Positions 4,274 through 63,765 of a DNA stretch of 64,000 nt are shown here, in pieces. The position numbers and the translations under genes were made by a program. This stretch comes from Candidatus Poribacteria bacterium (GTDB taxonomy: Bacteria; Poribacteria; WGA-4E; PCPOR2b), in the NCBI GenBank assembly GCA_965218095.1, contig OZ244587.1, positions 1,668,720 through 1,732,719 on the forward strand. Reading direction: 5' to 3'. Below the pieces are notes generated by a model. That model did no database searches and had not been told where the DNA came from. It saw only the letters and a list, made by a program, of their open reading frames with translations. Every line of letters begins with the position of its first letter. The first letter of the stretch is position 1.

Positions 4274-7200
4274 TTACTTCAAAATGACCATCCGCCTCAT
4301 CTGACGGAAAGATGGCGTAGACAATTGGTAGAAATAGAGTCCACTTGAGACCCGCTCTCCCGTTTCAGAGCGTCCATCCCAATACGCGGCTCGGCTCCGA
4401 TTCGTGTAATAGCCAGCTATCTGATGACCTAAATCCAACCGACGCACCAACGCGCCCTTTGTGTCATAAATCGTGATCTGCACATCGGCATCGTTGGCGA
4501 GATGATACGGCATCCATGTCTCCGGGTTGAATGGATTCGGGTAGTTTGGCAACAGGGCTATCTCTGTTGGTGTCAGGGATGCCAAGAGCTGTTCAAGCAC
4601 CACAATCCCCCTCACCATCGTGGCATCCTTAACCTCAAGCGACCTCGCGTCGGTCAGCCACTGTTGAACGTCTGCCGCCGTGAGCATCTCAAATGCTTGT
4701 GGATGCGCTGAAGGCGCGGATGCCGCATTCCCAAACGCGCCCGCAACCAACACCAGATCTAGGATATTCACGCCACCGTCACTATTCACATCCCCCGCAA
4801 TCGGTGGCGGCTCAGTGTCGGAGACGACCTTAAAGGTCACCGTTTGCTCAAATCCAGCGGCAGACACAGAGACGGTGTTCGTTCCCGGGTTCGGACCCAG
4901 CGTGAGCGTACTCTCTGCTCTGCCGTTTTCATCGGTCATTGTGCGTGTGGCATTGAGCGTTCCACCGCCCGTGGTCACGGTAAACGTGACCGGAACCCCC
5001 TCAAGCACTGAACCATTCTCATCCTGTACTTCAACGACAAACGGGTTCGCCGGGGCCGCACCGGACACGCCTTTCTGGTTATCGCCTGAGATTTTCAAAA
5101 GGGCGGGATGCGCTTGGTCGTCAAAGCCTACCATAACCCTTCTGCTTTGGAGGGTTGGAATGTGGGTGTGGATGGATGTGTAGCTCAGGAGGTTTCCCGT
5201 CACATCAACCGTGTCTCCACCCCCCAATCCCGTGTTTGCCACCAGGGGCGAGATGTCCGATATCGAGTTGTCCGAAAGCTCCAGCCATGTCAGATTGGTT
5301 AATCCCGACACAGGCGAGATGTCCGATATCGAGTTCCCGCCAAGCCCCAGCCATGTCAGATTGGTTAATCCCGACACAGGCAAGATGTCCGATATCGAGT
5401 TCCCGCCAAGCCCCAGCCATGTCAGATTGGTTAATCCCGACACAGGCGAGATGTCCGATATCGAGTTCCTGTCAAGAAACAGCCGTGTCAGATTGGTTAA
5501 TCCCGACACAGGCGAGATGTCCGATATCGGGTTGCCCCAAAGATACAGCTCTGTCAGATTGGTTAATCCCGACACAGGCGAGATATCCGATACTGAGTTG
5601 TTGTGAAGATTTAGATCTGTCAAATTGGTTAATCCTGCCACTGCTGAGATGTTCGAGATGTTGTTGTCCCCAAGAAACAGTCCTGTCAAGCTGGTTAAGC
5701 CGGACATCGTCGAGATGTCCGAGATGTTACTGCCCCCAAGAGACAGCGACCTTAGTTTGGTTAAACCCGTTAAAGGCGAGAAATCCGATACCGAGTTACT
5801 GTTAATCGAACGATTCTCTGCCTCCACATACTCCGCACTAAGATCCAGTGTTCTCAGGTTGGTTGCACCTTCAAGCCCGGTCAAATCGCTTATGTTGGCG
5901 TTTCTTGCGTCAAGGCGGGTCAAATTTTCTAGGTGCCCTCGGAAAATGGGAGTACTTGGTGGCAGCCCGATCGCTTCTGCAATCGCAGCGCGGAGGTTGG
6001 GGTCGGGGATGTCAATCTCAGCCACTGCCTCAAGACGAACCCCCATTAACCCAGACATATCCCACAGTTCGACCGTGCCAGCCACCGTCCCGGAGGCAAG
6101 GGTTGTATCATCGCTTGAAAATGCCACAGAAAGTACATGATCCCCATGCCCGAGAGTGACGAAATTTACTCGCGTCGTTATGTCCCACAGCTTGACCGTC
6201 CTGTCCCACGACCCGGTAGCGAGGGTACTCCCATCGCGCGAAAATGCCACAGAAGTGACCCCACCCGTATGCTCTTCAAAAGTGCCGATATTTTGCTGTG
6301 TCTCAACATCCCACAGCTTGACCGTCCTATCCCACGACCCGGTAGCGAGGAGGGTCGCATCAACAGGCGAAAATGCCACAGAAGTGACCCTACTCGTGTA
6401 ATCCTCAAAAGTGCCGATATCTCGGTGCGTCGCCACGTCCCACAGCTTGACCGTCCCATCCCGCGACCCGGTAGCGAGAATTGCCCCATCGGGCGAAAAC
6501 GACACAGAAGTGACCTCATCCGTATGTCTAAAAGTGGCGATATCTCGTTCTGTCTCTACGTCCCACAGCTTAACCGTCCCATCCCATGAGCCGGCAGCGA
6601 GGGTCCTCTTATCGGACGAAAACGTCATAGCAGATGTATATGTATGCACCTTAAGGGTCGCGATATCTTGTTGCGATACTACGTCCCACAGTTTGACTGT
6701 CCCATCCCATGAGCCGGTTGCGAGAGTCACGCCATCGGACAAAAATGCCACAGAATGGACTCCAGATGTATGCTCATCAAAGGTGGCGATATGGTGTGGC
6801 GAAATTTCCACAAGCCAAAAGGAGGCATAGCCTGCATTCCCATCCGTATCAACAACCTTGACATGAACGGTATGTACCATAGAATCAGACAGATTCGTAA
6901 AGCCCTCCGCTGTAAAAGCACCGTTATAGTCGAATTTAATGGGGGCATCTTTTTCTCCCGCTAATCCACGACACGCTATCAGTCCATCAGAACCAGACAG
7001 GAGCACTTGATGGAGCCCCTCTGAATCGCTGACTTTGAGTTGAACCGGGACGCTCTGCGAGCCTGCCGGATAAGTACGCGGCGAGGTAAGTTCAATGGTG
7101 GGTCGCTCCCCCTCTTCAGTTGGGGTATTGAGATTGAAGTAGGGATGCACGGACAAATATTCGGCATGGCACGCGGATAACTGATCCCGTCCTGGACCAC

Positions 7201-7986: not shown

Positions 7987-8206
7987 CTTACTATTACCCA
8001 TAAGTCTGCAAACCCTTGTGGTATAGGGATTCTGCCCGCCGATGAATCAGCGGGCTACACGGCTGCGTCCGATGAAGAAACCGATAAACGAAGTTTATTA
8101 GTTTCTCCTGAATTGAACTGAGAAGATCGCTCGAAAGCCCGATGAATCGGGCTTCTTTTTCTGTAACTCGGCGACTTCATCGCCGAGCGAAAAGATGTGG
8201 GTAATA
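7987..8206 (+). repeat. MITE-like structured repeat, copy 2 (upstream of the 1210-aa gene)
   Basis: Same orientation and architecture as copy 1. Hairpin plus T-tract at 8145-8170. A 3-nt deletion and several compensating stem substitutions relative to copy 1. Confidence 0.6.
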
Positions 8207-8254
8207 GATAGCAACTTTGAGGGGACATATAGAGGGAGACTTTTCAAAGTTAAA

Positions 8255-19047: not shown

Positions 19048-19530
19048 TCACAATTCCCGAATCTCAACCTCCAGTGAATCCAGATCCACAATGGCAACCG
19101 TGGACCTGCCGGTTGTCCAACCGCCTGTTTCGCCAGGATTGACGATGACCGATTTCTCCTTGCGAACATCAATCTCATGCGTATGCCCGTAGATCACGAT
19201 GTCGTACTCGCCGCTTTTGGCGATGGGCTCGGCAAGTTCGGGGTAGTGCATCGCGGCGATCTTGCGTCCACCAACCTCCACGCTTGCAAGGTTGGGATGA
19301 ATCTCTCCAACTTCCTCAAATCGCTTGGCGACCATGATGCGCTCCCCGTCGTTGTTGCCGAAGACACCCACAACCCGACACTTCAAGTCACCCATCGCCG
19401 CCACCGCAAATGGCGCAATGAAATCGCCGGCATGTATGACCAATTCAACCCCTTCGCCGTTGAACAACTCAACGGCTTTCTTGATCATTGGAACGTTGTC
19501 GTGACTGTCCGAAAAAACGCCAATTTTCAT
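19048..19530 (-). CDS. metallophosphoesterase (YfcE/MJ0936-like phosphodiesterase)
   Basis: MKIGVFSDSHDN...HAGDF...GNND...GHTH motifs. A GGAGG RBS precedes the ATG. Confidence 0.8.
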   Translation of the reverse strand: MKIGVFSDSHDNVPMIKKAVELFNGEGVELVIHAGDFIAPFAVAAMGDLKCRVVGVFGNNDGERIMVAKRFEEVGEIHPNLASVEVGGRKIAAMHYPELAEPIAKSGEYDIVIYGHTHEIDVRKEKSVIVNPGETGGWTTGRSTVAIVDLDSLEVEIREL

Positions 19531-19557
19531 GTCAACCTCCTAGGTTCTGTTGACATT

Positions 19558-19994
19558 TCAAGGGAGCCATATAAGAGTGGAGACAAAGCTGAGAAATCCA
19601 AAATAACGGATAGCTAACTTCTCGAACCGAGAGAAGATGCGGCGATACCATTTTATCTTGTTAATGAAACATTCAACCCGATGTCTCTCTTTGTACAGAT
19701 GTTTGTCGTAATCTCTTTGATCCACACGATGACTTTTGGGCGGTATCACCGCAATCGCTCCATTCGCCTCAATAACCGCGATAAAATTGTCAGAGTCATA
19801 TCCCTTGTCTCCAATCACATACTCGCTTTTATATCCAAGTATCAACGCTTCTGCTTCTGCTATGTCGTTTCTTTGACCGGGCGTCAGATGTATTCTTAGT
19901 GGATTACCCAGGCCGTCAACGATGATGTGAATTTTTGTACTGAATCCCCCGCGAGAGCGACCTAACGCTTGGTTTTCAGTGCCACCCTTTTTTT
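19558..19994 (-). CDS. IS427-group transposase OrfB (DDE domain), reached by -1 frameshift from OrfA
   Basis: ...STKIHIIVDGLGNPLRIHLTPGQRNDI...VIGDKGYDSDNFIAVIEANGAIAVIPPKSHR... Confidence 0.75.
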
Positions 19995-20348
19995 TAAGGC
20001 ACCCGCCACACACGGGTGCGCTCGAATGATTGTACTGTCCACAATAAGCGACTCGATATCGGGGTCGGCGGCGAAGTGGGGGTGCATCTGTGTGAAGATA
20101 CCTTTGTCGCACCATCGAGCAAACCGCTTGTAGCGGGTGTTCCATTTGCCATAGGTGTCTGGTAGAAGTCTCCATTGAGCCCCGCTACGAGTCACCCACA
20201 GGACGGCTTCGACGAAGCGGCGTGTAGCAGCTTCGTCGCCAACATAGATGGTGAGACAGCTAAGAAGAAACCGGTATATCTTATTCCATTGTTCATCAGG
20301 TAAGGTTATTGGCGTCATTCTTCTATTATGCCACAACCTTATACTCAA
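19962..20348 (-). CDS. IS427-group transposase OrfA
   Basis: 128 aa, MSIRLWHNRRMTPITLPDEQWNKIYRFLL... It ends in the poly-A frameshift window. Confidence 0.8.
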   Translation of the reverse strand: MSIRLWHNRRMTPITLPDEQWNKIYRFLLSCLTIYVGDEAATRRFVEAVLWVTRSGAQWRLLPDTYGKWNTRYKRFARWCDKGIFTQMHPHFAADPDIESLIVDSTIIRAHPCVAGALKKRVALKTKR

Positions 20349-20365
20349 ATGTCAACAGAACCTAG

Positions 20366-20824
20366 TTTGAAATCCAAGATCTAGTTATAGCAACAATCTA
20401 TTCTTTGCGAGGTCGAATGTGTAAATTCTACACTCCTTGTGGAGACTACTACATCCTCACCAACTAGCACCAAAGGTTAATAGACCCTGGCTTTATCTCG
20501 GCATTTGCCGCCCAGGAGCTAATAGCATGGCACGCCCAGATATTTGCCTAGAATATCCCACAGGGCGATGTCAATGGCACTGAGCGCCCCCATAATTGCC
20601 GCCCCCCGAGAAAATGACTCACCGGTACAGATATTGCAGTGATGTTCAATCCGAAGGGGATTCTGCCCAATCAGGTGGCGTTTGAAGGTGTCGACTGCTT
20701 TTTCAGATGCCTCCAAGTATCCCCAGGCCCCCGATTCTCCTAAACCGGTAATTCCTTCGTCAGTGATCGCCTGCACAAAAAGGTAACTGTCAACCGGAAT
20801 TGTTTTTATCTCGACAATCTTCAT
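20366..20824 (-). pseudogene. enolase-superfamily (mandelate racemase/muconate-lactonising-enzyme N-terminal domain) gene with two in-frame stops, 3'-truncated by IS427-like copy 1
   Basis: MKIVEIKTIPVDSYLFVQAITDEGITGLGES...[28 protein letters not shown]. A GGAGG RBS. Canonical enzymes are about 380 aa. Confidence 0.7.
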
Positions 20825-21634
20825 AACGTTCCTCCAAACCTTCGTGACCCGGCTTGAATTGGTCTTGCTCTTTGGGTGTAACGCTGAATGAGTATAGCAC
20901 GAGATAGTAAACTGTGCAAGCACAATTTCTGGCGGCGTGAAGTATAAACTTAGTAAGCTGCAATTTTTTGATGAAGTTTTTCGCGGTATTGGAGTTATAT
21001 TAAATTTGTCAATAATGAAGTTCAGAGGCACAGAAGCCGATGGGATTACATTTTCCCTGGATTTCTATGTTCAATTTGTCAAATTATCCCAAAACAAGAA
21101 AGGAGACCATTAACATGATGGTTAACCATAGACGACAAACACGCACACCAGTGTTGAACACTCTTACAGAGCAAGTAAGTGAATCAATATCTGGAAACCT
21201 CCTCACATCCCCCGTGCACCACATTGCAGTTGCACACACAGGCGTCGGATTTGAGGAATGGACGGAAACGCCACAAAATCCATCCCGTTGCACAACTCCG
21301 TTCCGAGAGTCCGCAGACCGGACTCCGAAGGATCAGAGCCCTGATCTTGCGAGGGGCTTTTGTTTGGCCCAACTTTCAGTCATTCAGAGAAACACAGGTT
21401 TCGGTTTTAGGGAGACATACAAGCGCTCCTCATTGATTTGCGAAACAACTTTTTCATCGCCAAAGGAGGCAGGAAATGGGAGGTACTTTAGCGTCCGATT
21501 TTGGACAAGAGCACGATTACGAGAAAGGCATAGGCCACGAGAAGATTCCGGCTAAATTGGCAGGCGTCCCCAGGGGGAAGGGCCCTGGTTGGATTGCCTG
21601 CCTTTCGACGACGGCACAGCCGAAGGAGGTGAGC

Positions 21635-22228: not shown

Positions 22229-22280
22229 TCAGCTTTCTGCTTCAATCTGTAGTGGTCAGGAAGATGGTAGACATCATTCC

Positions 22281-22340
22281 TTGTAGGGTGGGCACCGCCC
22301 ACCAAAAGCACCGAAGCACGCGGTGGGCAGTGCCCACCCT
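22281..22340 (+). terminator. long near-perfect hairpin (21-bp stem with one mismatch, 18-nt loop) downstream of the sigma factor gene
   Basis: GTAGGGTGGGCACCGCCCACC...GGTGGGCAGTGCCCACCCTAC. No strong U-tract, so it may be a REP-like or attenuator element rather than a classical terminator. Confidence 0.4.
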
Positions 22341-22612
22341 ACGATTTGTCGCTTAGATTTGGTGAACAAAAGTGTCTATCATCCTATTGATCATTACACT
22401 TTCCGCTTCAATCGCAGATTTTGGATTGAAATCACAGTTTTGGGTTTCGGGTAATTGTGCCGTTGGCGGGATGTTATCTCTCGCCAGGAACATCAGTGAA
22501 GCGCCTGCCGCCGCACCCGAAACCCTTTTTTTGCGCGAACTAGTAGCGCATAGCCTGCCCTCGATGCAATCGAGGTCTACCGGCTTGCGCACTCAAAGTC
22601 AAGTTACGCACG

Positions 22613-30302: not shown

Positions 30303-31239
30303 TAACCCAAGTTGCGACCTATTCATCGAATATGTGAGTGAACTGAATATGTGAGTGAACTCAGAGCTGATTGATACTGCTAGCCAATACAAACAAGACC
30401 ACTTTCAATTCAAATCCGTGTTGCGTTACTGCATGGATTGAACGTGGAAGCAGTTTGTTAATCAAACTGCCAGCCGTCTCAACAGACTTACGATGGTAAT
30501 TAGCCAAGTAGGTCTCCCATGGTGGATACAGCCGCTTGGAATTCTTCTTGCGTACTGGCTTTAACGACTGATGTAACAATATCTTCTATCTCATAATTAT
30601 TGTATGCTTTGTCACCATAGCCCGGTGGCAAGTCGAAGTCAAACCACTGTAACCCTTCAACGTCCCCTGTACTGGCTGGGGTCACAAAAAATTCAACAGG
30701 GTGTCGACTCGCAGTCACTAGCAGATGAACTTTCAAGCCATAGAAATACCGACGTTTGGACGCTTGATAGCCTCGATATGCCTTATCGGTATAGATTTTT
30801 GACCGACGAATGCGGAACAAACAGCAATTGGTATGGTATCCAGTGCATAGATTTTCTGTTGATTAAGTTGCACATAGCTTCGTCCCAAGATTTTGAACAA
30901 TGTGGTGAACATCGGTTTAATTCGATGAAGTCGTCGGTTTAATCGACTTTTTGAAAGCATCTTGGGTATATAGCCATGAGTCTTTAGAAAGTCACAAGTG
31001 GTTTGCAAGTTTGCCCCGAAGAACAACGCAGCGACGATGCCGGTGGTCATCACTTCGGCATCAGACATCTGCGTTTGTGGGTGTGGTTTTGAGTTGAGTG
31101 CTTCTAAGAGCTTGTCACAGAGATAGAAAATGGTTACAATTTGGATGTCCATGGGTTTCTCCTTTGAGGTATTATGGTTTGGATTACCTCTACTTTAACG
31201 GAAAACCCATGGATTTTCAATTACTAGCAACTTGGGTTA
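30303..31239 (-). mobile_element. IS982-family insertion sequence, copy 1 (degenerate)
   Basis: 13-bp perfect terminal inverted repeat TAACCCAAGTTGC...GCAACTTGGGTTA. The transposase is split into three ORFs (30733-31152, 30500-30820 and 30361-30579), with motifs FYGLKVHLLV...TPASTGD...HGFELKVVLFVLASSINQL typical of IS982 transposases. Confidence 0.75.
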
Positions 31240-37353: not shown

Positions 37354-37374
37354 TAACCCAAATTGCTACCTAAA

Positions 37375-38486
37375 CTGAGGGGTGTGCATAGTAGTTCATT
37401 GGAAAACAGCCGCCATATGAGAGATATTGCGAGCAGGTAACTTCCATATGGCATTGGCAATCATAGCCACTTGCACTGATAACACCCCGATAGCTAAACA
37501 ACAGCGTACATTGAAAAACCCCTTGACCGGTAACTGCTTCTGTTGAGGAGTGGTGCCTATCACTTTAGCAATCAAGTCAAACAACGGTTCAACCGAACTG
37601 CGACGTTTGCTTAAACAGAGACGCTGCTTGGGTTGGTTGATAAATCGATGATACGCCTTGGCAAACCGTCCCTTTGTCCATCTAAGTGCCGGGGTAATCA
37701 AAGCGACTTGTGCCTTCGCCCAACGACGGATACGGTCTGCTTGGGTATAGGCATCATCGGCAGTGAGTGTCTGCGGTGAAAGTTGTGTCAGAATCTCAGA
37801 CGCTTTAGCATCTATCGCCCAACTTTCGGAGACCGACGCACGGTGCACAGTTATCAGTGTTGGGAACGCACCTTGTGTGCAGATAATGTGAAGTCCGTAG
37901 CCATAGACCCAGCCATGATAACCACTCTTGCTCCACGTGGCATCGGTGTCGAGGTTGCGTAGATGTTTAGGTGCTTTTCCTGCTTTGCGGTCAGTTTGAT
38001 GCCAGACGGGTCCTCGTGCCTTAAATAAACTTTTGTCGGCTACCAGATGAGCCAAGTTGAATTGTTGGGACAAGTCAGTGGCATACTGACCGATAAACAA
38101 TACAAATGCCTCTATCACTTCATATAATGCCTTATAGCGACGTGCAATCGTGGTTCGATGAGGGGGCTGTTGCCACCCCAGCATTTGTAACACTTCTGGG
38201 TGATTGATTAGCCACCGCCATTGCGTTTTGAAGCCATAGATGCCGTGAAACTGCATCAACATGAAGAAAATGATAAACGAGGTGGTTGAATATGTCAATG
38301 GTTTTGCGTGTGTGACACCTGGTTTGTCAATACGGTGTTGCATAAACTGCTCAAAGAGTTGCATAATAAGAGTGACATAATCAGCCAACATTGGTCTTTG
38401 TACCATATTGGGGCTCCTTTTGCTATGATAACAATAGGAAACCCTTTTGGCTTGATTATGTCAACTATATTTATGCACACCCCTCA
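37375..38486 (-). mobile_element. IS4/IS5-superfamily (DDE_Tnp_1) insertion sequence, 1112 bp
   Basis: 15-bp terminal inverted repeat TGAGGGGTGTGCATA / TATGCACACCCCTCA. A 7-bp direct repeat CCTAAAC at 37368-74 and 38487-93. One 336-aa transposase ORF at 37396-38406. Confidence 0.75.
37396..38406 (-). CDS. DDE transposase (IS4/IS5 superfamily)
   Basis: 336 aa occupying the body of the IS element. Confidence 0.7.
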   Translation of the reverse strand: MVQRPMLADYVTLIMQLFEQFMQHRIDKPGVTHAKPLTYSTTSFIIFFMLMQFHGIYGFKTQWRWLINHPEVLQMLGWQQPPHRTTIARRYKALYEVIEAFVLFIGQYATDLSQQFNLAHLVADKSLFKARGPVWHQTDRKAGKAPKHLRNLDTDATWSKSGYHGWVYGYGLHIICTQGAFPTLITVHRASVSESWAIDAKASEILTQLSPQTLTADDAYTQADRIRRWAKAQVALITPALRWTKGRFAKAYHRFINQPKQRLCLSKRRSSVEPLFDLIAKVIGTTPQQKQLPVKGFFNVRCCLAIGVLSVQVAMIANAIWKLPARNISHMAAVFQ

Positions 38487-38921
38487 CCTAAACTGGAAAA
38501 AACATTATTTGTGCAGAACGTTCAGTGTAGGTTAGGTTGAACGGTTAAAAGCGAATCCCTATCAAGGACAAATAGAGGTGCTGCCTTTCAACAACACGGT
38601 CTTATAGTGAAACCCAACCTCTCCATCCAACCGACGCGCTGATTATCAAGTGTTGGGTTTCACTCTATTTGTGAGATTTCAAGCAGAATCGAATCCCGCA
38701 ATCCAAGTGTAATGTTTGGTATTTTTCATTGGTTCCGTTCAACCCAACCTACGTGCTATAGACATATCGCTCCATATGACCCGGCACGCTGCGCCGCCCA
38801 TTGCTGGGTCATTGCGAAAGGTTGAGCACCTCGACTTTAACGAAAAACCGATGAATTTTCAATAGGCAGCAACTTAGATTATCATATACCCATTTGGGTA
38901 TCAAATTGAACGGAGAACGTT

Positions 38922-52481: not shown

Positions 52482-54196
52482 CTATCCAGGCGTCACGTAC
52501 GACAAGTCCCAATCGCCGAGTTTACGTAGATCCATGCGTGAGCCCGACAAGTCGGACTCACCCGACGCCCGCCACGCGTCGATCTCGTCACGATGTCCCA
52601 GCCGCCGTAGCGCGTTCCACATGGCGCGACAGTTAGCGCGCCCCGAGCCCCCGGCGCAATCCCAAAAGAACATGTGCTCGACGCCGGCGCTATAGACGGT
52701 CGCCGCACGGCGCCGAAACGCATCCGGGGTCATGTGGCGCAGCATGAGATTCGGGGCCAGAATGCATGACGTTCCGCGAACTAGTTCAACGAAGAACTCA
52801 AGTTGCTTCGGATCGGTCCAGGCCATCGTGTTGCTGTCATAGTTCGCCCCCGACGTATAGGGGATAAGCGTGTCCACCAAAGCTTCGCCCACCCATACCG
52901 CCAGGTCCATCCCGTTGACCAGATTCTCCTGCCCGGTACCACCCACGACCGCTGATACCTCGATACGCTTGGCCCGCCCCTGTGTGTGTGTCTCCTGGTC
53001 CATCGCGTCGCGAACCTCTCGCATGAACGTCGTCAGAACGCCCACCCGATACGACAGCCAACGCGGATCATGCACGTCTAGTTCGCGCGGATTGTCGCCG
53101 AACTCTTGCTTGAATCCCGCGACGACTGGCGGCTCGTACTCCACCAACGGCATTCGGCGGTTGTAGAGCAAGCAGACGCCGTCGATCGGCCGCTGGGCCA
53201 TCTCGCGAAGTAGCGAGATGACGAACTAGCGGACCTCCAGAAAACTGTAGGCCATTCGCGGCGTGCACCGGCCGGCCCGGTCCTCGCACCGCCACTCTGG
53301 ATGCGCCTTGTAGAAGGTATCTCCCGAATTCGAATGGTTAAGTAGCGGTGGGTAATGAAAACCGGCTACCCGATAGCAAGCGTGAAACTGGAGTCCGATC
53401 TCGTGCGCATACTCAAGCGCAACATCGAATGGATCGATCGTCTGTTGCCGGAACTCGCGCCAGCTTTCGACGTGTAAACGGTCTCCGCGACGGCCGAAAT
53501 CGGTGACATCAAGCGTGTGCCTCCGCCCAATCTGACTGAAATATGAGGTCTGGTTGCCACCACCCGCTTCCCAGTACATGCGCGAGAAATCTGTGTCACG
53601 ATATGGCTCGATCTCGCGCCGAACGTGCTCAGGAGTGGTCAAACGGTACTGGTAGTGTGGCCCGCGGGCGTCGTTGTGAGCAAACAATCGCCGGGTGTCG
53701 GACTGCTGATTGTCTGCTTGAAAGACACGGGCCTCTGCATCTGTCAGCGGCACAACCTTGAGGTAAGCCACCCGTGCCGGCGAGCACTCGAACGAGCCAG
53801 CGGCGCCACCCGGGCGCAGATCTGCCCAATGTTCAAATCATGACCCGTCAGGTCGGTGATCCGCCAGAACATCTCGACGATCTGCTGACCATGATGCCCA
53901 CCGCCGCTTTGCGGCGGCAGCGAGACCACCGTGAAGGTCTCGTCTCCACTGCGCTTGAGGAGAACCACTAGAGCTGGTGACCTTCCTCGGGAAATTGGCA
54001 AGACCCCAATAGACACCGCGTGCAGACCGCGAACGCCTAACAGATAGGTGATAGTGGGGGCCGCCGTCTCCGGCCCGGCCAGCAACATCACGCCGGATAG
54101 CGCGTCTGCAGGCGTGCAGCGATCCAAATCCGTCCGATAGTTAGGCTGTCCGCTCAACCAACCATCACCAATTCGGTCGATCGTTTCAGTTGCCAT
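52482..54196 (-). pseudogene. GC-rich hypothetical (glycoside-hydrolase-like, uncertain) gene broken into three ORFs by frame changes
   Basis: ORFs 53744-54196, 53226-53771 and 52482-53201 abut or overlap on the same strand. Local GC is about 60%. Confidence 0.35.
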
Positions 54197-54613
54197 TTAC
54201 AGCCTCCTTGCAGCTTTTTTGTTCTTTTCAAACTTAAAACGACTTGATTATTGTAGTACAAAGGGTAAGTCAAGTCAAGAATAAATTCAGTTGTAGTTCA
54301 TGAATGAATGGCGCGGACTTAAGGACACATGAAATGCCGTAACCCCCTCTATCACTGGGCTGGTTCAATCTCAACGGAAGAACAGAGAGACGTGATGGAA
54401 CCTTCAGGTAGTCGGCCGTTCCCTTGATGAGGCGATAAGAAGTTCGATAATGTACAGCGGGCGACTGACGCCTTCGCCGCGGTGGGATGTGCCGGAGTCG
54501 GATCCGGTCTGGACCGAGTTTGCCGACAAGGGATGGACGCATTTCGCGCGGTCCCAAGACGGCGGCGTGACGTGACACTACATGTATGCGGTCGACAAAG
54601 GTGAAGCCCGCAC

Positions 54614-55203
54614 GTGCAAGGCCTCGGGCAGGTCAAGACGCTGACAGACGACATTGCCACAGCCACGTTCTGTATGACCGACGAGTATCATATCGATCAC
54701 ATCTGGCGGTCCACCGACAGCGGTAAGTCCTTCAATCTGAGCAATCCCATCACCCATCACTCGGCCGAGACCCATATCAAGCAACTTCCATCCGGCTGGT
54801 TGTTGGGCGTGGTCCGTACAGTTTACCCACAATACGAAGATTCGCGGAACAAGCGCACGACCATGATCGCCTCCGACGATAACGGCTAAACGGCTACACT
54901 TGGAGCGACCGTGTGATGCTCACGACCGAACTCGGAGACTGCCCAGGCGAGTTCATTTCCCTGCCCGATGGTCGGGTAGTTTTTCTGAAGTGGTACACAC
55001 CGGCCGCCATCGTGGCCAGAGTTTCGCATGATGAGGGCCGAACCTGGAACGGGCCAATCTACCTAGTGCGCCAGATAGAGGGCGAGAACTCTGGCGTCTA
55101 TCCGTCCAGTATGGTGATGGACGACGGGACGATTCTGACCATTTCGTCGACGCACGAGGGCACGCCGCTTCAGGCCATACGATGGAAATTGCCGCCTTTG
55201 TAG
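54614..55203 (+). pseudogene. BNR/Asp-box (sialidase-like) repeat gene remnants
   Basis: Two Asp-box motifs, WRSTDSGKSF and SHDEGRTWNGP, lie in two ORFs. Upstream in-frame segments are interrupted by stops. Confidence 0.45.
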
Positions 55204-55263
55204 TGCTCGACTTCGCCGTAGCAGCGCCGGTCACCTGGGGCCGCTAGTCGACACGAGGAGGTG

Positions 55264-55572
55264 ATGCGGTTTGTTAGCGAAGGGACGGCTGTTGGCGTTG
55301 TGGATATTGACGCGGCAAGTGCGGAGGCAGTCGCCAATGAGATCGGCAAAGCGGGCGGGAAAGCAAAGGCAGTTATCGGCGATCTGCTGCAAGACGAAGA
55401 TGTCATTCGGGTAGTCGAGGCCGTGTGAATTCGGTCTGTCCGGAGCCAATCGAGACGCCAATGCTGAAGATCTTCATGGCCCGTCCAGACCAGCAGACCG
55501 ACCCAGAGGCGAATCTGGAGATGATGGGTTACCCTCGGTCGGACGGGTCAGCCCAACGAGGGAGCGCGTTTG
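55264..55572 (+). pseudogene. short-chain dehydrogenase remnant with an internal deletion
   Basis: N-terminal MRFVSEGTAVGVVDIDAASAEAVANEIGKAGGKA...* and C-terminal VNSVCPEPIETPML... segments of an SDR, but no catalytic core. Confidence 0.4.
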
Positions 55573-55675
55573 GTATAATTAAATAGCCTTTTTCCCACAG
55601 CGTGGCTTCCCACTCGGCAAGTTGCGCTTCATCCGGTTTTTCTTTGTTGAACTCAGGAATATCAACAATAGGCAT
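55529..55675 (-). pseudogene. N-terminal 48-codon remnant of a PhyH-family gene
   Basis: MPIVDIPEFNKEKPDEAQLAEWEATLWEKGYLIIPNAL, then a stop. Confidence 0.4.
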
Positions 55676-55870
55676 AAAGCCTCTCCTTCAATTAGAAATT
55701 CTTGACAAGGCGCTCAACTCTGACTTTTGTTTCAACCTTCTTCAGATATCGCAAAAATGCCTCGATTTTCCGATCTTCTAACGAATTGCAATAAATTCCC
55801 TCACGTCAGGTTGGTAAAGTTTATCACAGATCTGCGGTAGAGAGCAGCCCAAAAGTGAGGGTTGTGCTTG

Positions 55871-55901
55871 ACATAAACCGAAAATTTGTGTAAAATATTT
55901 A
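55871..55901 (+). promoter_or_regulatory. consensus sigma70 promoter TTGACA-17nt-TAAAAT
   Basis: ttgacataaaccgaaaatttgtgtaaaat. Confidence 0.4.
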
Positions 55902-56109
55902 AATAGTTGAAGGTTGTTCTATTAACCCATCGCGGGGCAGCGAGAGTGAAGGAACAGTTTTGGTTTGCAAAGCCCCTTTCCATTTTTCAGCCAACCATTG
56001 TTTCCTGCCAAGCCCCCTGCCATTTGAACGACATCGTATCAGCCGGCTTTCCCGTTATCTTAGATTATTCTACCAACAACCTACAAGCCTACTGCTCCGT
56101 CAAGTTGAA

Positions 56110-56417
56110 TCTGATGATAAATCCCCAAAGAAAGACTTACTGACCCAGAATATGCAAGGGATTTTCTTGATGTTTCTCTTGAAGAATACGAGAAAGATGG
56201 AAACAAGAAGGCATTTTTACGGGCGCTCCGGTATGTTGCTGAAGTACAAGGAGGAATTTCTCATTTAGCTGCAGAGACCAATCTGAACCGACCCAATCTT
56301 CACAAACTGCTGTCTAAGGAAGACAATCCAAGACTGGAGACCATAGGTGCGATACTCCATGCTTTGGGTTATCGTTTATCAGTCTCATCACTTGAGCGTG
56401 AAACGATTCCGTCTTGA
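56110..56417 (+). pseudogene. HigA-family addiction-module antidote protein (TIGR02684-like) with a +1 frameshift in a C4 run just after the start
   Basis: ATGATAAATCCCC aaa...: deleting one C joins MIN to PKERLTDPEYARDFLDVSLEEYEKDGNKKAFLRALRYVAEVQGGISHLAAETNLNRPNLHKLL...LGYRLSV. No partner toxin was recognised. Confidence 0.5.
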
Positions 56418-56453
56418 CGGGGTGATGGGAACGGGAAATGGAGGATGGGAACT

Positions 56454-57701
56454 ATGTCACAACAATTTGGGACTAAAATCGGTGAACAAATGAGGGTAGC
56501 CCCAGCACGTTTCATCTATATGGACTGCCATGCCACCACGCCCCTTGACCCGCAGGTGCTAGAAGCGATAATGCCGTACCTGACCACCCATTTCGGCAAC
56601 GCCGCCAGTAGCACACACGTCTTTGGTCAAAAAGCAAAGGAAGCGGTGGATCACGCTCGACAACAGGTCGCAGATCTAATCGACTGTTCCCCAGAGGAGA
56701 TTGTATTCACTAGCGGTGCAACGGAATCTGATAACCTTGCTGTCAAGGGAGTTGCGTATCAACACAGACATAAAGGGAGTCATATTGTTACCAGCACCGT
56801 CGAACACCACGCGGTTTTAGATTCGTGCAAGGCATTGGAGGAGGCAGGCTTTGATGTGACCTATCTTCCCATTGATAAGTATGGTATGGTTCACCCGCAG
56901 CAGGTCGAAGATGCTATCACAGATCAGACGATACTAATTAGCCTGATTTACGGGAACGGTGAGGTCGGTACAATCAACCCCATCTCAGAAGTTGGCGAGA
57001 TCGCCGAGCGACATGATATACTTTTCCATTCTGATGCAACGCAGGGGGTCGGCAAAGTTGAATCGGGCGTCAATAAACTGAAAGTGGATCTGATGTCGTT
57101 CACTGCTCACAAGATATACGGTCCCAAAGGCATCGGCGCGCTTTATGTCCGCAAGAAACATCCACCGATTCAATTGTATCCACTCCTTCACGGTGGCGGT
57201 CAGGAAAATAACATCAGATCCGGGACACTCAACGTTCCCGGCATCGTCGGTTTCGGGGCGGCTTGTGAACTTTGCAAAGAGGCGATGGCGGAAGAAGCGA
57301 AACGAATTGCGGCTTTACGCGGGCGGCTTCATCACGGGTTATCCAAACGAATCGATTTCATCCACCTCAACGGACACCCGAAAAAACGCCACCCCGGCAA
57401 TCTCAATCTCAGCTTTGAGTTTGTTGAAAGCCAATCTGTATTGTTAGGCTTGAAAGAGATTGCGCTTTCATCAGGGTCCGCTTGTAACTCTGATTCCGTT
57501 GAGCCATCTTATGTCTTACGCGCGATGGGCGTCAAAGACGAACTTGCCCTCGCCGCTATCCGTTTCGGATTGGGACGCTCCAACACGGCAGAGGAAGTCG
57601 ATGAGGTCGTTGATCGCGTGGCGAAACAGGTCACCCGTTTGCGCGAATTGTCTCCGCTCTATGAGATGGCGCAGGGTAGAAGCTACAAAGCAACAGCATA
57701 A
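56454..57701 (+). CDS. iscS: cysteine desulfurase (NifS/IscS family, PLP-dependent)
   Basis: SFTAHKIYGPKGIGALYV (PLP-Lys) and SSGSACNS active-site loop. GGAGGA RBS. Confidence 0.85.
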   Translation: MSQQFGTKIGEQMRVAPARFIYMDCHATTPLDPQVLEAIMPYLTTHFGNAASSTHVFGQKAKEAVDHARQQVADLIDCSPEEIVFTSGATESDNLAVKGVAYQHRHKGSHIVTSTVEHHAVLDSCKALEEAGFDVTYLPIDKYGMVHPQQVEDAITDQTILISLIYGNGEVGTINPISEVGEIAERHDILFHSDATQGVGKVESGVNKLKVDLMSFTAHKIYGPKGIGALYVRKKHPPIQLYPLLHGGGQENNIRSGTLNVPGIVGFGAACELCKEAMAEEAKRIAALRGRLHHGLSKRIDFIHLNGHPKKRHPGNLNLSFEFVESQSVLLGLKEIALSSGSACNSDSVEPSYVLRAMGVKDELALAAIRFGLGRSNTAEEVDEVVDRVAKQVTRLRELSPLYEMAQGRSYKATA

Positions 57702-57720
57702 TAAAATCGAGAGGAAGTAA

Positions 57721-58677
57721 ATGAATCTGTTCAAAAAAGGTAAGAATGTAGATACAAAAGATCAAGCACCTGCTCGTCCGCGCGTGGCGAGCCATCCAGA
57801 GCTCAAAATGGCAAATACACCACCGGCTGGCAGACCCACCACCCCACAGATGGGAATGCCACCACAGGGGCAACCGCAAAATATCCTCATCCCGGATGTC
57901 CAGTATAAGATTGCCGTGGCGAGTGGAAAGGGCGGCGTTGGTAAATCGACGGTTGCTACAAATCTAGCGATCGCTTTGGCGCAAAAGGGTACAAAGGTCG
58001 GGCTGATGGATGCAGATGCATACGGGCCAAGCATCCCCACCATGATGGGGGCGAAAGAACAACCGCAGACAAGTCCAGAAAAGAAACTCATCCCGATCGT
58101 CAGGCACGGCATCAAGCTGATGTCAATCGGCTTTCTGGTGCCTGATGAACAAGCGATGATCTGGCGAGGACCTATGTTACATAGTGCCGTCCGTCAATTT
58201 CTTGGTGATGTAAATTGGGGCGAACTGGATTATCTCATCATCGATCTACCCCCCGGCACAGGAGATGTCGCCCTCTCCTTAACGCAGTCGGTTCCGTTAA
58301 CGGGCGGTGTGATTGTGACGACGCCACAGGATGTCGCGTTGGCTGATGTAAGACGCGGCGTCGCTATGTTTGAAAAACTGGGTGTACCGATTCTGGGGGT
58401 CATTGAAAATATGAGCTATTTCGCATGTCCTTATTGTGGAGAGAGAACCGCCATCTTCAGGGCAGATGGCGGGGTAAAAACCAGTGAAAAACTGGGGGTT
58501 TCATTCTTGGGGCAGATTCCTCTCGATCCTGAAGTTTGTACTGCTGGCGACCTTGGCGTGCCAATCGTCGCATCTCACCCGGATTCGCCGCAATCCGAAG
58601 CGTTCCGTAATGTAGCCAATCTGCTTGTGGAAGAGCTCCGTAATCAGGACTTAGAAGGGGAATTAACGATTATTTAG
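57721..58677 (+). CDS. apbC: Mrp/ApbC/NBP35-family Fe-S cluster carrier ATPase
   Basis: IAVASGKGGVGKST P-loop and CPYC-type motif CPYCGE. Confidence 0.85.
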   Translation: MNLFKKGKNVDTKDQAPARPRVASHPELKMANTPPAGRPTTPQMGMPPQGQPQNILIPDVQYKIAVASGKGGVGKSTVATNLAIALAQKGTKVGLMDADAYGPSIPTMMGAKEQPQTSPEKKLIPIVRHGIKLMSIGFLVPDEQAMIWRGPMLHSAVRQFLGDVNWGELDYLIIDLPPGTGDVALSLTQSVPLTGGVIVTTPQDVALADVRRGVAMFEKLGVPILGVIENMSYFACPYCGERTAIFRADGGVKTSEKLGVSFLGQIPLDPEVCTAGDLGVPIVASHPDSPQSEAFRNVANLLVEELRNQDLEGELTII

Positions 58678-58806
58678 AATCCCCTTTCCCTATCCGTTCC
58701 TATATTTCACACCAATCGCTCAAGCCGAGTTTTCTGATATTGTCTGCTGAAGAAATCTCGGCTTTTGTGGTTTTATCTTACGTTTTATACTTATGAGGTA
58801 TTTCCG

Positions 58807-60234
58807 ATGAAAGAAAACGATCAATTCATTGCCGAACTTTCAGATATCGTCGCATCCACGTATGTGATCACCGATCCAACCTCGCTTTCCGTTTACGAGT
58901 GCGATGGTGCAACACTGTTCAAAGCAACCCCCGATGCTGTCGTTTTTGCCACAACGGCGCAAGAGGTCTCAGCGATTGTTAAGCTGGCGAACAAGCACAA
59001 CGTGCCTTTCATTGCGCGGGGTGCAGGGACCGGCTTGAGTGGGGGCATGCTTCCTGTCGAGGGTGGCATCATTATTGCCTTAAACCGAATGAATCGTATC
59101 CTCGAAATCGACTTGGCAAACCAGCGGGCAGTGGTCGAGCCAGGCGTTGTAAACCTCTGGTTGACGCAAGCCGTTCAGGATGATGGTTACTATTACGCGC
59201 CAGATCCTTCTAGCCAGCAGGCGTGCAGCATCGGCGGGAACATCGCTGAGAATTCGGGTGGCCCCCACACCCTCAAATATGGCGTCACCTCAAACCACAT
59301 ATTGGGGCTAGAAGTGGTGTTGACCGATGGCGAGATAGTCGAATTCGGCGGCGCCGTTGAAGAGACCCCCGGCTATGACATTCGTGGCGTCATGATTGGC
59401 TCCGAAGGGACATTCGGCATCGTGACAAAGGCAATTGTCCGGCTCTCACGCCAGCCTGAAGGTTATCAAACCCTGCTTGGTGTGTTTGAAACCATCGACG
59501 ATGCATCGAATGCGGTTTCCAGCATTATTGGCGCGGGCATCATTCCCAGCGCTTTAGAGATGATGGATCATCTTGTTATCAAAGCGGTTGAAGAGGCATT
59601 TCACTGGGGATTTCCGCTTGATGCGGGTGCAGTTCTCATCGTTGAATTAGATGGTATCAAGGCAGGAATGCAGAGTCAAGCCGAGCAGATTACTGAAATC
59701 TTCAATAACTACAACTGCCGGGAAGTCCGCTATGCCAAAGACGATGCCGATCGACAGAAGATTTGGAAATCGCGCAAAAGTGCGTTCGGGTCGTTTGGGC
59801 GGCTTGCGCCAAACTATATTACGCAAGATGGCGTGGTGCCTCGCACTCAGCTTCCCAAAGTCCTCAGAAGGGTCGCGGAAATTTCCGAAAAGTACGACAT
59901 TCCGATCGCGAATGTTTTCCACGCCGGTGATGGCAATATCCACCCAATTGTGCTGTTTGACGAACGCGATCCAGTCCAGTGCGAGCGTGTCGATGCGGTG
60001 AACACAGAGATTCTCGTCGCTTGCGCTGAAGCCGGCGGAACCATCACCGGTGAACACGGCATCGGGGTGGAAAAAATGGACTACATGCCATTGATTTTCA
60101 GCCCAGAAGATCTGGCAGTGATGGCAACCATTAAAGAGATTTTCAACCCGTTGGGATTATGCAACCCCGGCAAAATTTTCCCAACTGCCGAATCGTATAC
60201 AAAGCTTGGGTTAGAACAGTACGAAGCTGACTGA
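58807..60234 (+). CDS. glcD: FAD-linked oxidase (GlcD / D-lactate dehydrogenase family)
   Basis: FAD PCMH domain ARGAGTGLSGG, with a C-terminal FAD-oxidase_C domain. Confidence 0.8.
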   Translation: MKENDQFIAELSDIVASTYVITDPTSLSVYECDGATLFKATPDAVVFATTAQEVSAIVKLANKHNVPFIARGAGTGLSGGMLPVEGGIIIALNRMNRILEIDLANQRAVVEPGVVNLWLTQAVQDDGYYYAPDPSSQQACSIGGNIAENSGGPHTLKYGVTSNHILGLEVVLTDGEIVEFGGAVEETPGYDIRGVMIGSEGTFGIVTKAIVRLSRQPEGYQTLLGVFETIDDASNAVSSIIGAGIIPSALEMMDHLVIKAVEEAFHWGFPLDAGAVLIVELDGIKAGMQSQAEQITEIFNNYNCREVRYAKDDADRQKIWKSRKSAFGSFGRLAPNYITQDGVVPRTQLPKVLRRVAEISEKYDIPIANVFHAGDGNIHPIVLFDERDPVQCERVDAVNTEILVACAEAGGTITGEHGIGVEKMDYMPLIFSPEDLAVMATIKEIFNPLGLCNPGKIFPTAESYTKLGLEQYEAD

Positions 60235-60250
60235 AAGAGAGGAGGATTTT

Positions 60251-60949
60251 ATGAAATACTGGAATCAGGCTTTACAATTGGCCATTGTTGTCGTTGTAGC
60301 GGTTGGCATTGGGTGTGCCCCCCCGGCGAGCTCCCCAGAAGCCTCCCAAGCCCCAACTGATGAATCAGCAGCAGCGGAATCTTTATCCACCGATACCCCG
60401 AAACTGGATAATTTTGACCAACCAGATGGCTCCCTGTTTGAAATTAAAGAGCCAAACAAAATTGAAGGTGGGCAGTTGCATCTACAAGCCTCACAGGAAG
60501 GTGCGGTTCTGCTATCATCTGCGGAAAGTCTATCACCGAAGGAATACAACGTATCGGTCAAAGTCATGCCGCCAAGCGTTGGTGAATACGTTGGGTTAGC
60601 CTTTGCTGTCCGGGGCGAAAATTCACGTATTCTGTTTTATGTATACCGACCGGCGGGAGCAGATCCGTTCGGCAAGCGGTGTAACGTCGGAGTGGAGGGG
60701 TATGTTGGTGGAAGGAAAATGCGTGCGCCGGATATTCGTGTACGCGAAGTTAGCTTTCAAAAGGATGCCCCAATCAAGCTTTCCATACGCCACCTTGGCC
60801 AAAATGTGACGCTTTCGATTAACGACGAGAATATCGGACGCTTTCACGAGCGATCGCTAAAACCGGGCAAGGTGGGCGTGTACGGAAAATCTCAACACGG
60901 AGACAGTAGCCCCGCAATTGTCAAATTTAATAGCTTTGGGGTTGAGTAA
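60251..60949 (+). CDS. hypothetical lipoprotein
   Basis: AVGIGCAPP lipobox. AGAGGAGG RBS. Confidence 0.45.
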   Translation: MKYWNQALQLAIVVVVAVGIGCAPPASSPEASQAPTDESAAAESLSTDTPKLDNFDQPDGSLFEIKEPNKIEGGQLHLQASQEGAVLLSSAESLSPKEYNVSVKVMPPSVGEYVGLAFAVRGENSRILFYVYRPAGADPFGKRCNVGVEGYVGGRKMRAPDIRVREVSFQKDAPIKLSIRHLGQNVTLSINDENIGRFHERSLKPGKVGVYGKSQHGDSSPAIVKFNSFGVE

Positions 60950-60957
60950 CTTATTGA

Positions 60958-62702
60958 TAACCCAAGTTGCTAGGTTCTGTTGACATTTCAAGGGAGCCAT
61001 ATAAGAGTGGAGACAAAGCTGAGAAATCCAAAATAACGGACAGCTAGCTTCTCAAACCGAGAGAAGATACGACGATACCATTTTATCTTGTTGATGAAAC
61101 ATTCAACCCGATGTCTCTCTTTGTATAAGTGTTTGTCATACATTCTTTGGTCAACACGATGACTTTTTGGCGGTATCACCGCAATTGCTCCATTCGCCTC
61201 AATAACCGCGATAAAAGCGTCCGAATCGTACCCCTTGTCTCCAATCACATATTCACTGTTATATCCGATTATCAACCCTTCCGCCTCAGTTATGTCATGT
61301 CTCTGACCGGGGGTCAGATGAATTCTTAGGGGATTGCCTAGTCCGTCAACTGTGATGTGATTTTTTGTACTGAAACCGCCCCGAGAGCGACCTAATGCTT
61401 GGTTTTCAGTGCCACCCTTTTTTTTAAGGTGCCCGCCGCAGACGGGTGAGCGCGGCAGATGGTACTGTCCACAATAAGCGACTCGATATCGGGGTCAGAG
61501 GCGAAGTGGTGGTGCATCTGTGTGAAGCCCCCTTTGTCGCACCATCGAGCAAACCGCTTGTAGCGGGTGTTCCATTTGCCATAGGTGTCTGGTAGAATCC
61601 GCCATTGAGCCCCACTACGAGTCACCCACAGGACGGCTTCGACGAAGCGGCGTGTAGCAGCTTCGTCGCCAACATAGATGGTGGGACAGCTTAGAAGAAA
61701 CCGGTATATCTTATTCCATTGTTCATCAGGTAAGGTTATTGGCGTCATTCTTCTATTATGCCACAACCTTATACTCAAATGTCAACAGAACCTAGTAATT
61801 GAAAATCCATGGGTTTTCCGTTAAAGTAGAGGTAATCCAAACCATAATACCTCAAAGGAGAAACCCATGGACATCCAAATTGCAACCATTTTCTATCTCT
61901 GTGACAAGCGCTTAGAAGCACTCAACTCAAAACCACACCCACAAACGCAGATGTCTGATGCCGAAGTGATGACCACCGGCATCGTCGCTGCGTTGTTCTT
62001 CGGGGCAAACTTGCAAACCACTTGTGACTTTCTAAAGACTCATGGCTATATACCCAAGATGCTTTCAAAAAGTCGATTAAACCGATGTTCACCACATTGT
62101 TCAAAATCTTGGGACGAAGCTATGTGCAACTTAATCAACAGAAAATCTATGCACTGGATACCATACCAATTGCTGTTTGTTCCGCATTCGTCGGTCAAAA
62201 ATCTACACCGATAAGGCATATCGAGGCTATCAAGCGTCCAAACGTCGGTATTTCTATGGCTTGAAAGTTCATCTGCTAGTGACTGCGAGTCGACACCCTG
62301 TTGAATTTTTTGTGACCCCAGCCAGTACAGGGGACGTTGAAGGGTTACAGTGGTTTGACTTCAACTTGCCACCGGGCTATGGTGACAAAGCATACAATAA
62401 TTATGAGATAGAAGATATTGTTACATCAGTCGGAGTCGAATTAAAGCCAGTACGCAAGAAGAATTCCAAGCGGCTGTATCCACCATGGGAGACCTACTTG
62501 GCTAATTACCATCGTAAGTCTGTTGAGACGGCTGGCAGTTTGATTAACAAACTGCTTCCACGTTCAATCCATGCAGTAACGCAACACGGATTTGAATTGA
62601 AAGTGGTCTTGTTTGTATTGGCTAGCAGTATCAATCAGCTCTGAGTTCACTCACATATTCAGTTCACTCACATATTCGATGAATAGGTCGCAACTTGGGT
62701 TA
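60958..62702 (+). mobile_element. IS982-family insertion sequence, copy 2 (degenerate), carrying a nested IS427-like insertion
   Basis: Same 13-bp inverted repeat as copy 1 (60958-70 and 62690-62702). Transposase ORFs at 61867-62214 and 62177-62644. A 22-bp deletion relative to copy 1. Confidence 0.75.
60973..61792 (-). mobile_element. IS5-family (IS427-group) insertion sequence, copy 2, 820 bp, nested 13 bp inside the IS982-like end
   Basis: Same 12-bp inverted repeat as copy 1. A TA duplication in CTAG (60971-72 and 61793-94). OrfA at 61392-61778. OrfB is degraded (only 60988-61275 remains open). Confidence 0.8.
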
Positions 62703-63259
62703 ATACTACCGAAATATACCAAGTCCGGATGCGGGGCTTTGGGCTCGTCGAGCACCTCGTACGGCCTCTTGCCGGACAGGTGGCTGCTAGGCACTACGCG
62801 CGTTGGGCCGTTGTCCTCAGTGAAGTTCATCAGCGGCCACATCGAGTTACAGAAGTAGAATGCACCTGCAGCATCCTTGGCGCAGCCATCCGTATGCAGG
62901 TCCTAGTTCTCATCGGCGGGCGGCCAGTGGGGACCTGATGCGTGGACTCCCATCGAAAAGAACTCCACTTGAAACACATGGGCCACCGCAGCCAACACGC
63001 GCAGACGAGTCAAACAGACGTCGTACACGTCCGACCTGCACTTGTTCTGCGTGTTCTCGACTGTGGTCGGCGCGCCCTCCTGGCCCGTTCGTTCGAGCTC
63101 CCACAACTGCTCGTTTGCCGCGAGTATCCGCGCCGCTTGTTCGCGTGTGTAGATGCCTTCTAGCGGCAAATAACCGTCCCGGTCTAACTTTTCCTTCTCC
63201 GTAATGGTGAGTGTGTCATCACGAACGCCCAATTCATATAGTGCTTGCCAGAACTCCAT
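62703..63259 (-). pseudogene. PhyH-family gene with an in-frame TAG (62900-62902), 3'-truncated by the IS982-like copy 2
   Basis: MEFWQALYELGVRDDTLTITEKEKLDRDGYLPLEGIY...PPADEN*DLHTDG...GPTRVVPSSHL... runs straight into the IS inverted repeat. Confidence 0.65.
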
Positions 63260-63525: not shown

Positions 63526-63765
63526 ACTATATCACGACCCATAAACCGAGTCAAGCGTAAAATCGCAGAAATTTCCAAAGCGTTTGACAGATAAGCCGAC
63601 TTCACCCCAACAAAGCGCACTTGAGATCTCTTTAGGAAATTCACACAGATACCAATTCGGATCTAAGGGTACGACTTTTTCAGTTATGGCAGGATCTCAA
63701 TCCATCATTTCAAACCCAAACAGGTATATAAGTGAAAAACTCGTATTGGGATGGTGATTCGGTCG

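Follow-up and report, generated by a model that had tools for sequence, protein, structure and literature searches.

In the window analysed here, a stretch of 64,000 nucleotides from a Candidatus Poribacteria genome (contig OZ244587.1), two unrelated DDE insertion sequences (ISs) are nested: an apparently working element of the IS427 group of the IS5 family lies within a dead element of the IS982 family. With high probability, the locus as a whole is explained by this nesting, by a transposase deletion inherited throughout the IS982-like lineage, by spread of that lineage in trans, and by an inversion of which the nested locus forms one junction. Each element has a second copy in the window, and those outside the nest are called copy 1, whereas the nested pair are called copy 2. 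An earlier reading of the window made without database searches (hereafter, the sequence-only reading) had proposed the nested structure and the boundaries of all four copies, and both are borne out exactly (Table 1).

Nesting and the broken IS982-like transposase

The IS427-like element sits 13 bp inside the left end of IS982-like copy 2, where the CTAG taken as target by the nested element begins with the last C of the left inverted repeat. This CTAG, at bases 13–16, is present in every IS982-like copy. IS982-like copy 1 provides a paralogous empty site, reading GCTAGTAAT where copy 2 reads GCTA[IS]TAGTAAT, which proves that the nested element inserted into CTAG with duplication of the TA. 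Every orthologue of IS982-like copy 2 contains the insert, all other IS982-like copies lack it, and the exact repeat matches of both elements lie far above the shuffled expectation. A chimeric join of repeats during assembly would be in keeping with the tendency of repeats to break or mis-join metagenome assemblies, and the short-read contigs L113–L118 do break at the IS; but at least two further assemblies that are independent (L120/L124 and L122) show the same nested junctions, with differing internal indels and totals of 1737 and 1731 bp against 1745 bp in the window, so that an artefact is scarcely credible.

The four ends of the two IS982-like copies in the window carry the same 13-bp perfect inverted repeat (TAACCCAAGTTGC). 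Without the 820-bp insert and one TA, copy 2 measures 923 bp and is approximately 99% identical to copy 1 (937 bp); five substitutions separate the two in the alignment, where copy 2 has a gap of 22 bp and copy 1 one of 8 bp. Both copies share a 7-bp frameshifting deletion and a 9-bp in-frame deletion, to which copy 2 adds the 22-bp deletion and copy 1 the 8-bp deletion; the 13-bp repeats, the 22-bp lesion, and an extra split in copy 1 had all been noted from the letters and are upheld. With the 8 bp of copy 1 restored and the junction bridged, the repaired protein of 266 amino acids (aa) scores 150.9 bits against the IS982 profile NF033520 (curated cut-off, 130 bits), and the intact relative P0001 scores 164.4 bits, in agreement with the family originally proposed. 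The lengths of 915–957 bp, the inverted repeats, and the short target duplications are also those of the IS982 family, for which ISfinder gives duplications of 3–9 bp and ends beginning with AC. The single transposase open reading frame (ORF) of the family is lacking in the window copies. Since these copies are split by deletions while their relatives have single ORFs of 271 aa, they are degenerate members and not a different architecture. The element is an unnamed new member of a well-known family. A distant-mode search of a plasmid collection with the IS982-like element gave no match, and an exact-protein look-up gave none for the 155-aa ORF, the 232-aa ORF, or the 329-aa ORF adjoining copy 1; the named homologues and the genomes sharing the IS terminus are mostly Candidatus Poribacteria.

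The break shared by the transposase genes had been left as either an inherited inactivating frameshift or a programmed −1 slip in a caaaaat run, with intact single-ORF relatives named as the finding that would speak against the slip. Such relatives exist. Of 4,783 IS982-like homologues, those that are full-length and closest (66–84% identity) mostly have one uninterrupted ORF of 271 aa, and without exception they show PIAVCDNIRIRRSKIYTD at the position of PIAVCS / (F)RIRRSKIYTD in the window. The closest, P0001, is encoded by an 85%-identical single-ORF element of a sister strain (L001, on a 6.27-Mb contig together with L119 and L123). This element and those of the window have the 13-bp repeats in common and agree over nearly the whole of the first 50 bp and at 20 of the final 21 bp. 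At the DNA level, TGT GACAATA TTCGT in L001 (codons TGT GAC AAT ATT CGT) is aligned with TGT, a 7-bp gap, and TCCGC in the window; the same alignment also brings out the in-frame loss of 9 bp common to the copies and a non-coding duplication of 18 bp. The 7-bp deletion takes out the conserved residues C-D-N-I and falls between the conserved PIAVC and RIRRSK, leaving the first catalytic Asp on one side and the second Asp with the Glu on the other. Because single-ORF relatives exist and, against L001, the junction amounts to the loss of 7 bp, the shared break is an inherited lesion and not a programmed frameshift.

A −1 frameshift at CAAAAAT, producing a full-length transposase as in the IS3, IS1, and IS427 groups, could appeal to the overlap of the reading frames over approximately 40 codons, to the A5 run within this overlap, and to the identical break in every IS982-like copy. 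However, the junction lies upstream of the A-run, which is situated 3′ of the conserved RIRRS residues and merely encodes the conserved S-K-I (L001 reads TCGAAACTC there). The invariant or near-invariant R114, I115, and R117 of RIRRSK are encoded 5′ of the run, and a slip would give SAFVGQ in their place. Furthermore, the junction itself (TGTTCCGCATTCG) contains no slippery sequence, and the two-frame layout is not conserved in the relatives. In five of the seven copies compared, the frame is broken again by deletion of 22 bp, 8 bp, or both, so that a single slip cannot restore the protein; only L125_c3 is free of both. Programmed shifting in this element is therefore highly implausible. There is also a slim chance that the two products of the broken gene, a 139-aa N-terminal DNA-binding part with the first Asp and a 155-aa C-terminal part with an internal TTG start, act as a split transposase or a trans-acting regulator, leaving the lineage not inert; if true, such a role would explain the same lesion in every copy of a spreading lineage.

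The comparison covered seven IS982-like copies at five sites, namely window copies 1 and 2, the copy 2 orthologues L122 and L124, and L111, L121, and L125, and the 7-bp and 9-bp deletions are present in all seven. The filled site of L121 and the empty site of L119 document a clean insertion with ATA duplicated. Duplications also flank L111 (ATC), copy 1 (GAA on the element strand, TTC on the plus strand), and the intact L001 (ATA). As the dead element occupies at least five sites and three of its copies have clean duplications, it must have moved in trans. The whole local lineage is transposase-dead and would have been mobilised by an enzyme supplied by another element, for which an intact 271-aa relative of the L001 type, with nearly identical ends, is the most plausible source. 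Meanwhile, a 12-bp duplication and the 22-bp and 8-bp deletions, all later lesions, are found in each of the four pairwise combinations and differ even among copy 2 orthologues, a mosaic that points to gene conversion between the IS982-like copies.

Every IS982-like site with a duplication reads TA-NNN-TA, and TA stands at flank positions 4–5 in 52 of 112 genomic ends bearing the same 21-nt terminus; the element appears to insert at AT-rich TA-N3-4-TA sites. Two points weigh against this account of target and trans source. The ends are ambiguous by 2 bp, and can be read as TAACCC...GGGTTA with a duplication of 3–4 bp or as ACCC...GGGT with one of 7–8 bp, the duplication of copy 1 becoming TAGAATA in the latter case. 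In addition, the intact relative is known from the sister strain and not from the window's own genome.

The 21-nt IS982-type end (AATAGGTNGCAACTTGGGTTA) occurs at more than 109 places in Poribacteria, Pseudanabaena, Chamaesiphon, Abditibacteria, Simkaniaceae, Thermus, and others. Among the matches listed for this end, which do not include the window's own genome, only approximately 10 loci encode an IS982-like transposase, and most look like families of miniature inverted-repeat transposable elements (MITEs); some are units of approximately 146 bp with both ends, for example L073, L081, and L096.

IS982-like copy 2 as an inversion junction

Unlike copy 1, IS982-like copy 2 has no target duplication, its flanks reading TTGA and ATAC, a feature that the sequence-only reading missed. 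On the 6.27-Mb contig, with no IS at either site, the two flanks lie 183 kb apart on opposite strands. The left flank consists of glcD and the 232-aa ORF, which on this uninverted contig is followed directly by a glcE-like gene; the right one is formed by the 5′ part of a PhyH-family gene. A 5.30-Mb sister genome shares the window arrangement with 99.0% identity (L122) and also contains the reciprocal junction (L125), where the order is an FG-GAP gene, a fused IS427-like copy, a 303-aa PhyH paralogue, the PhyH 3′ part, the IS982-like copy L125_c3, and glcE. Copy 2 and L125_c3 are inverted relative to each other, approximately 185 kb apart. L125_c3 is flanked by ATAC...TCGA and copy 2 by TTGA...ATAC, while the empty sites read TA-ATAC-TA and TA-TCGA-TA; hence, the two recombinant copies have swapped half-duplications, apart from a single C-to-T change. 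The reciprocal junction was not found in the metagenome scans and turned up via the glcE-like protein of L123. Metagenome contigs of the Joint Genome Institute (JGI) contain the uninverted site (L127) as well as the junction (L128, a record evidently missing from the collection that was scanned), and both arrangements together show that the inversion is polymorphic in the population.

These junctions are most probably the outcome of recombination between two inverted IS982-like copies, one behind glcD and the 232-aa ORF and the other in an AT-rich insert of the dead PhyH gene. Such an event would have inverted approximately 185 kb, leaving one junction in the window, and copy 2 would lack a target duplication because it is a recombinant at the breakpoint. 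Two considerations count against this reading: one half-duplication of the first site differs by C/T (TTGA and TCGA), and intramolecular transposition, instead of homologous recombination, could formally have produced the inversion.

The PhyH 3′ part is a 105-aa ORF that adjoins the reciprocal IS982-like copy in the sister assemblies. In the strain without the IS (6.27-Mb contig), the PhyH 5′ part, an AT-rich insert of approximately 640 bp, and the 3′ part follow one another, with an in-frame TAG, and the joined parts match PF05721 at model positions 2–211 of 213 with 47 bits. Because both the TAG and the AT-rich insert are seen where the IS is missing, PhyH was already a pseudogene. The IS982-like element landed in this insert; L121 has another, independent insertion 50 bp from there. 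The proposal that copy 2 cuts a PhyH gene is thus correct in that the PhyH frame stops at the element, but the gene was broken beforehand, and its 3′ piece has been moved approximately 185 kb by the inversion and not lost by simple insertion.

Two further explanations of this arrangement were considered. In one, copy 2 lost its duplication through an IS-adjacent deletion of the rest of PhyH, with no inversion; the PhyH 3′ part is indeed not in the window, and the sister genome with the window arrangement is approximately 1 Mb smaller (5.30 against 6.27 Mb). Yet a deletion does not account for flanks on opposite strands of the 6.27-Mb contig or for a reciprocal junction in L125 that has both the PhyH 3′ piece and the complementary half-duplications, and this explanation is very unlikely. 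In the other, the IS982-like copies (30303–31239 and 60958–62702) bound a composite transposon of approximately 32 kb, for which their inverted orientation, their approximately 99% identity, and their distance of 29.7 kb could be cited. However, copy 1 is flanked by a duplication of its own, copy 2 represents an inversion junction, no common duplication flanks the pair (copy 2 having TTGA and ATAC), and both transposase genes are dead. Moreover, the intervening genes are syntenic with the strain without copy 2 (L123 matches window 53812–60959), and a composite transposon can be given almost no weight.

The IS427-like element and its predicted recoding site

Both IS427-like copies end in a perfect inverted repeat of 16 bp (GGTTCTGTTGACATTT); perfect repeats had been predicted correctly, but with a length of 12 bp. 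They are flanked by cTA/.../TAg, as is a third insertion on the sister contigs L119, L121, and L125, so that the predicted TA duplication inside CTAG is now found at three sites. CTAG target specificity is a trait of the IS427 group. The window copies are 91.3% identical, with identical ends and all 71 differences in coding sequence. Their conceptual ORFA–ORFB fusions score 256.6 and 254 bits against the IS5 profile NF033580 (curated cut-off, 110 bits), covering model positions 4–258 of 258. The family profile, the 820-bp length with inverted repeats, the 2-bp TA duplication, and the two overlapping ORFs together support the IS427-group assignment made earlier from the letters. The closest database proteins, P0241 and P0242, are 90–91% identical and without a useful name, and the element is an unnamed new member of a well-known family. 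IS427-group elements of Paracoccus are 832–865 bp long, with 13–21-bp inverted repeats and a 2-bp duplication (PMC3281130). The group has a frameshift motif and two ORFs that overlap, and a naturally occurring single-ORF mutant, ISPha1, has been described (PMC3281130).

In both copies, ORFA on the minus strand is intact, begins with MTPITL, and contains a DUF4096 domain, and the likewise intact ORFB lies in the −1 frame and holds the DDE region. The overlap reads TTA AAA AAA AGG in the ORFA frame, placing a canonical A_AAA_AAA_G heptamer within an A8 run (surrounding sequence, TTAAAAAAAAGGGTGGCACTGAA). This site, overlooked by the sequence-only reading, is the genuine recoding candidate of the locus. 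A conceptual −1 fusion of 253 aa gives a gapless alignment with single-ORF homologues of equal length through ...AGALKKxGGTENQALGRSRGG.... Between the window copies, the ratio of nonsynonymous to synonymous substitution rates stands at 0.12 overall (ORFA, 0.27; ORFB, 0.075), and neither copy has lost the A8 run. ORFB is thus under purifying selection although out of frame, which argues that the −1 shift is used. A stem-loop starts approximately 7 nt 3′ of the A8 run, with z = −2.9 in copy 1. The transposase would accordingly be made in vivo from ORFA and ORFB by a −1 shift at A_AAA_AAA_G, either ribosomal or through RNA-polymerase slippage on the A8 run, and both window copies look functional by these features. 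Against this, the stem-loop is weak in copy 2 (z = −1.2), many homologues of the transposase are single ORFs, so that the two-ORF state is not universal in the subgroup, and frameshifting and transposition alike are read from sequence.

A fused variant of the element occurs in L119 (6568–7401), L121 (6904–7736), and L125 (1202–1978), where a 16-nt partial duplication beside the A8 run places ORFA and ORFB in a single 258-aa frame. The clusters of this variant, P0241 and P0242, have 160 and 61 member sequences, respectively, and their size may reflect a more active, frameshift-independent form.

Neighbouring genes, other repeats, and relation to known systems

The features of the nested locus, its counterparts, and the adjoining genes are collected in Table 1.

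Table 1. Positions of the insertion sequences, their signals, and the adjoining genes in the window.
Feature	Position	Strand	Remarks
IS982-family copy 2	60958–62702	+	923 bp of own sequence, nested 820-bp element, and duplicated TA
Left 13-bp inverted repeat, IS982-like copy 2	60958–60970	+	TAACCCAAGTTGC
Right 13-bp inverted repeat, IS982-like copy 2	62690–62702	+	GCAACTTGGGTTA
Shared 7-bp deletion site, IS982-like copy 2	62177–62193	+	TGT/TCCGCATTCGTCGG; intact relative TGT GACAATA TTCGTATTTGTCGG
IS982-family copy 1	30303–31239	−	937 bp; own target duplication intact
IS427-group copy 2	60973–61792	−	820 bp; TA duplicates at 60971–60972 and 61793–61794, in CTAG
ORFA, IS427-like copy 2	61392–61778	−	ORFB ends at approximately 60988
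A8 run of A_AAA_AAA_G, IS427-like copy 2	61418–61425	−	ORFA/ORFB overlap; TTAAAAAAAAGGGTGG on minus strand
IS427-group copy 1	19543–20362	−	820 bp; TA duplication in CTAG; ORFA and ORFB intact
Equivalent A8 run, IS427-like copy 1	19988–19995		
PhyH-family pseudogene, 5′ part	62703–63259	−	in-frame TAG near 62905
232-aa ORF after glcD	60251–60949	+	now separated from the glcE-like gene by copy 2 and the inversion
Enolase-family ORF	20519–21031	−	only MR_MLE_N domain; stop codon 156 bp from IS427-like copy 1
Metallophos_2 gene	19048–19530		intact, 160 aa; IS427-like copy 1 lies 12 bp upstream, same orientation

The evidence gives no support to the earlier claim that IS427-like copy 1 cuts an enolase-superfamily gene: the enolase-family ORF ends in a stop codon short of the element, and the other flank consists of the ribosome-binding site and ATG of an intact gene. 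All IS427-like insertions are flanked by cTA...TAg; therefore, a simple insertion and a recombinant look alike at the flanks. Each of the nine contigs found, five of them JGI metagenome contigs, carries the copy 1 insertion, and no empty site was seen among these strains and metagenome contigs. At positions 19048–19542 of the window, copy 1 separates the Metallophos_2 gene from its former upstream sequence, leaving 12 bp that include a GGAGG ribosome-binding site. The gene follows 28 bp downstream of the IS427-like transposase stop on the same strand, with the same layout in every contig found, and may now be transcribed from IS427-like copy 1.

A second nested structure is located at window 37354–38881, where a transposase-less element of approximately 420 bp with IS982-type ends (TAACCCAAATTGC ... 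GCAACTTAGATTA) is interrupted by a different IS of approximately 1.1 kb (about 37377–38485; inverted repeat GAGGGGTGTGCATA). The latter encodes a 336-aa DDE transposase (37396–38406, minus strand) and is flanked by an 8–9-bp duplication (CCTAAACT). No NCBIfam IS cut-off is reached by this transposase, whose best match is IS982 with 37 bits; the same IS is found in L126 with the duplication AAATAATT and is absent at the matching L125 site. In addition, the window contains a tandem array of 66-nt units (5181–5791), diverged repeats of 123–129 nt that probably belong to a repeat-domain protein (6057–6792), and a 197-nt pair with 95% identity, 4.1 kb apart (3902–4098 and 8016–8212). Short dispersed repeats of 51–153 bp (84–96% identity) are common to unrelated loci and are possibly further MITEs; L111 838–990 and 9463–9525 match window 22246–22400, and L111 4586–4634 matches window 63695–63745.

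The IS982 elements show no new recoding mechanism, only an inherited deletion. The locus offers a fully reconstructed example in which transposase-dead IS copies still spread in trans and reshape the chromosome, including a polymorphic inversion of approximately 185 kb that splits the glcD–glcE gene cluster in an uncultivated sponge symbiont. It is useful for genome annotation and IS catalogues, and knowledge of transposition is unchanged. The nesting, the trans-mobilised dead lineage, and the inversion are textbook IS behaviour, well documented here.

In the case of the IS427 group (IS427, IS1248, ISPpa2, and ISPaes1), the element here resembles the known members in its length of approximately 0.82 kb, 13–21-bp repeats, 2-bp duplication, and two overlapping ORFs, with a complete DDE domain only in the −1 fusion, and single-ORF variants occur naturally; it differs in its source, Candidatus Poribacteria, and in that most homologues at 62–81% identity are single-ORF. 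The IS982 family (NF033520; Pfam DDE_Tnp_1_3) shares with the second element a size of approximately 1 kb, short perfect inverted repeats, a short target duplication, and, in intact relatives, a single DDE transposase of approximately 271 aa, and its AC ends fit the reading ACCC...GGGT. In contrast to that family, every copy of the window lineage seen is a pseudogene with the 7-bp deletion and a non-autonomous mode of spread, its target resembles TA-N3-4-TA, and its 21-nt terminus also bounds transposase-less MITE-like elements in several phyla. IS-mediated inversion between inverted copies is familiar from IS1, IS5, and IS26 in enterobacteria and from IS-rich symbionts. The inversion described here likewise has inverted copies at its breakpoints, each with one half of each original duplication, but it is a within-population polymorphism of Poribacteria involving transposase-dead copies.

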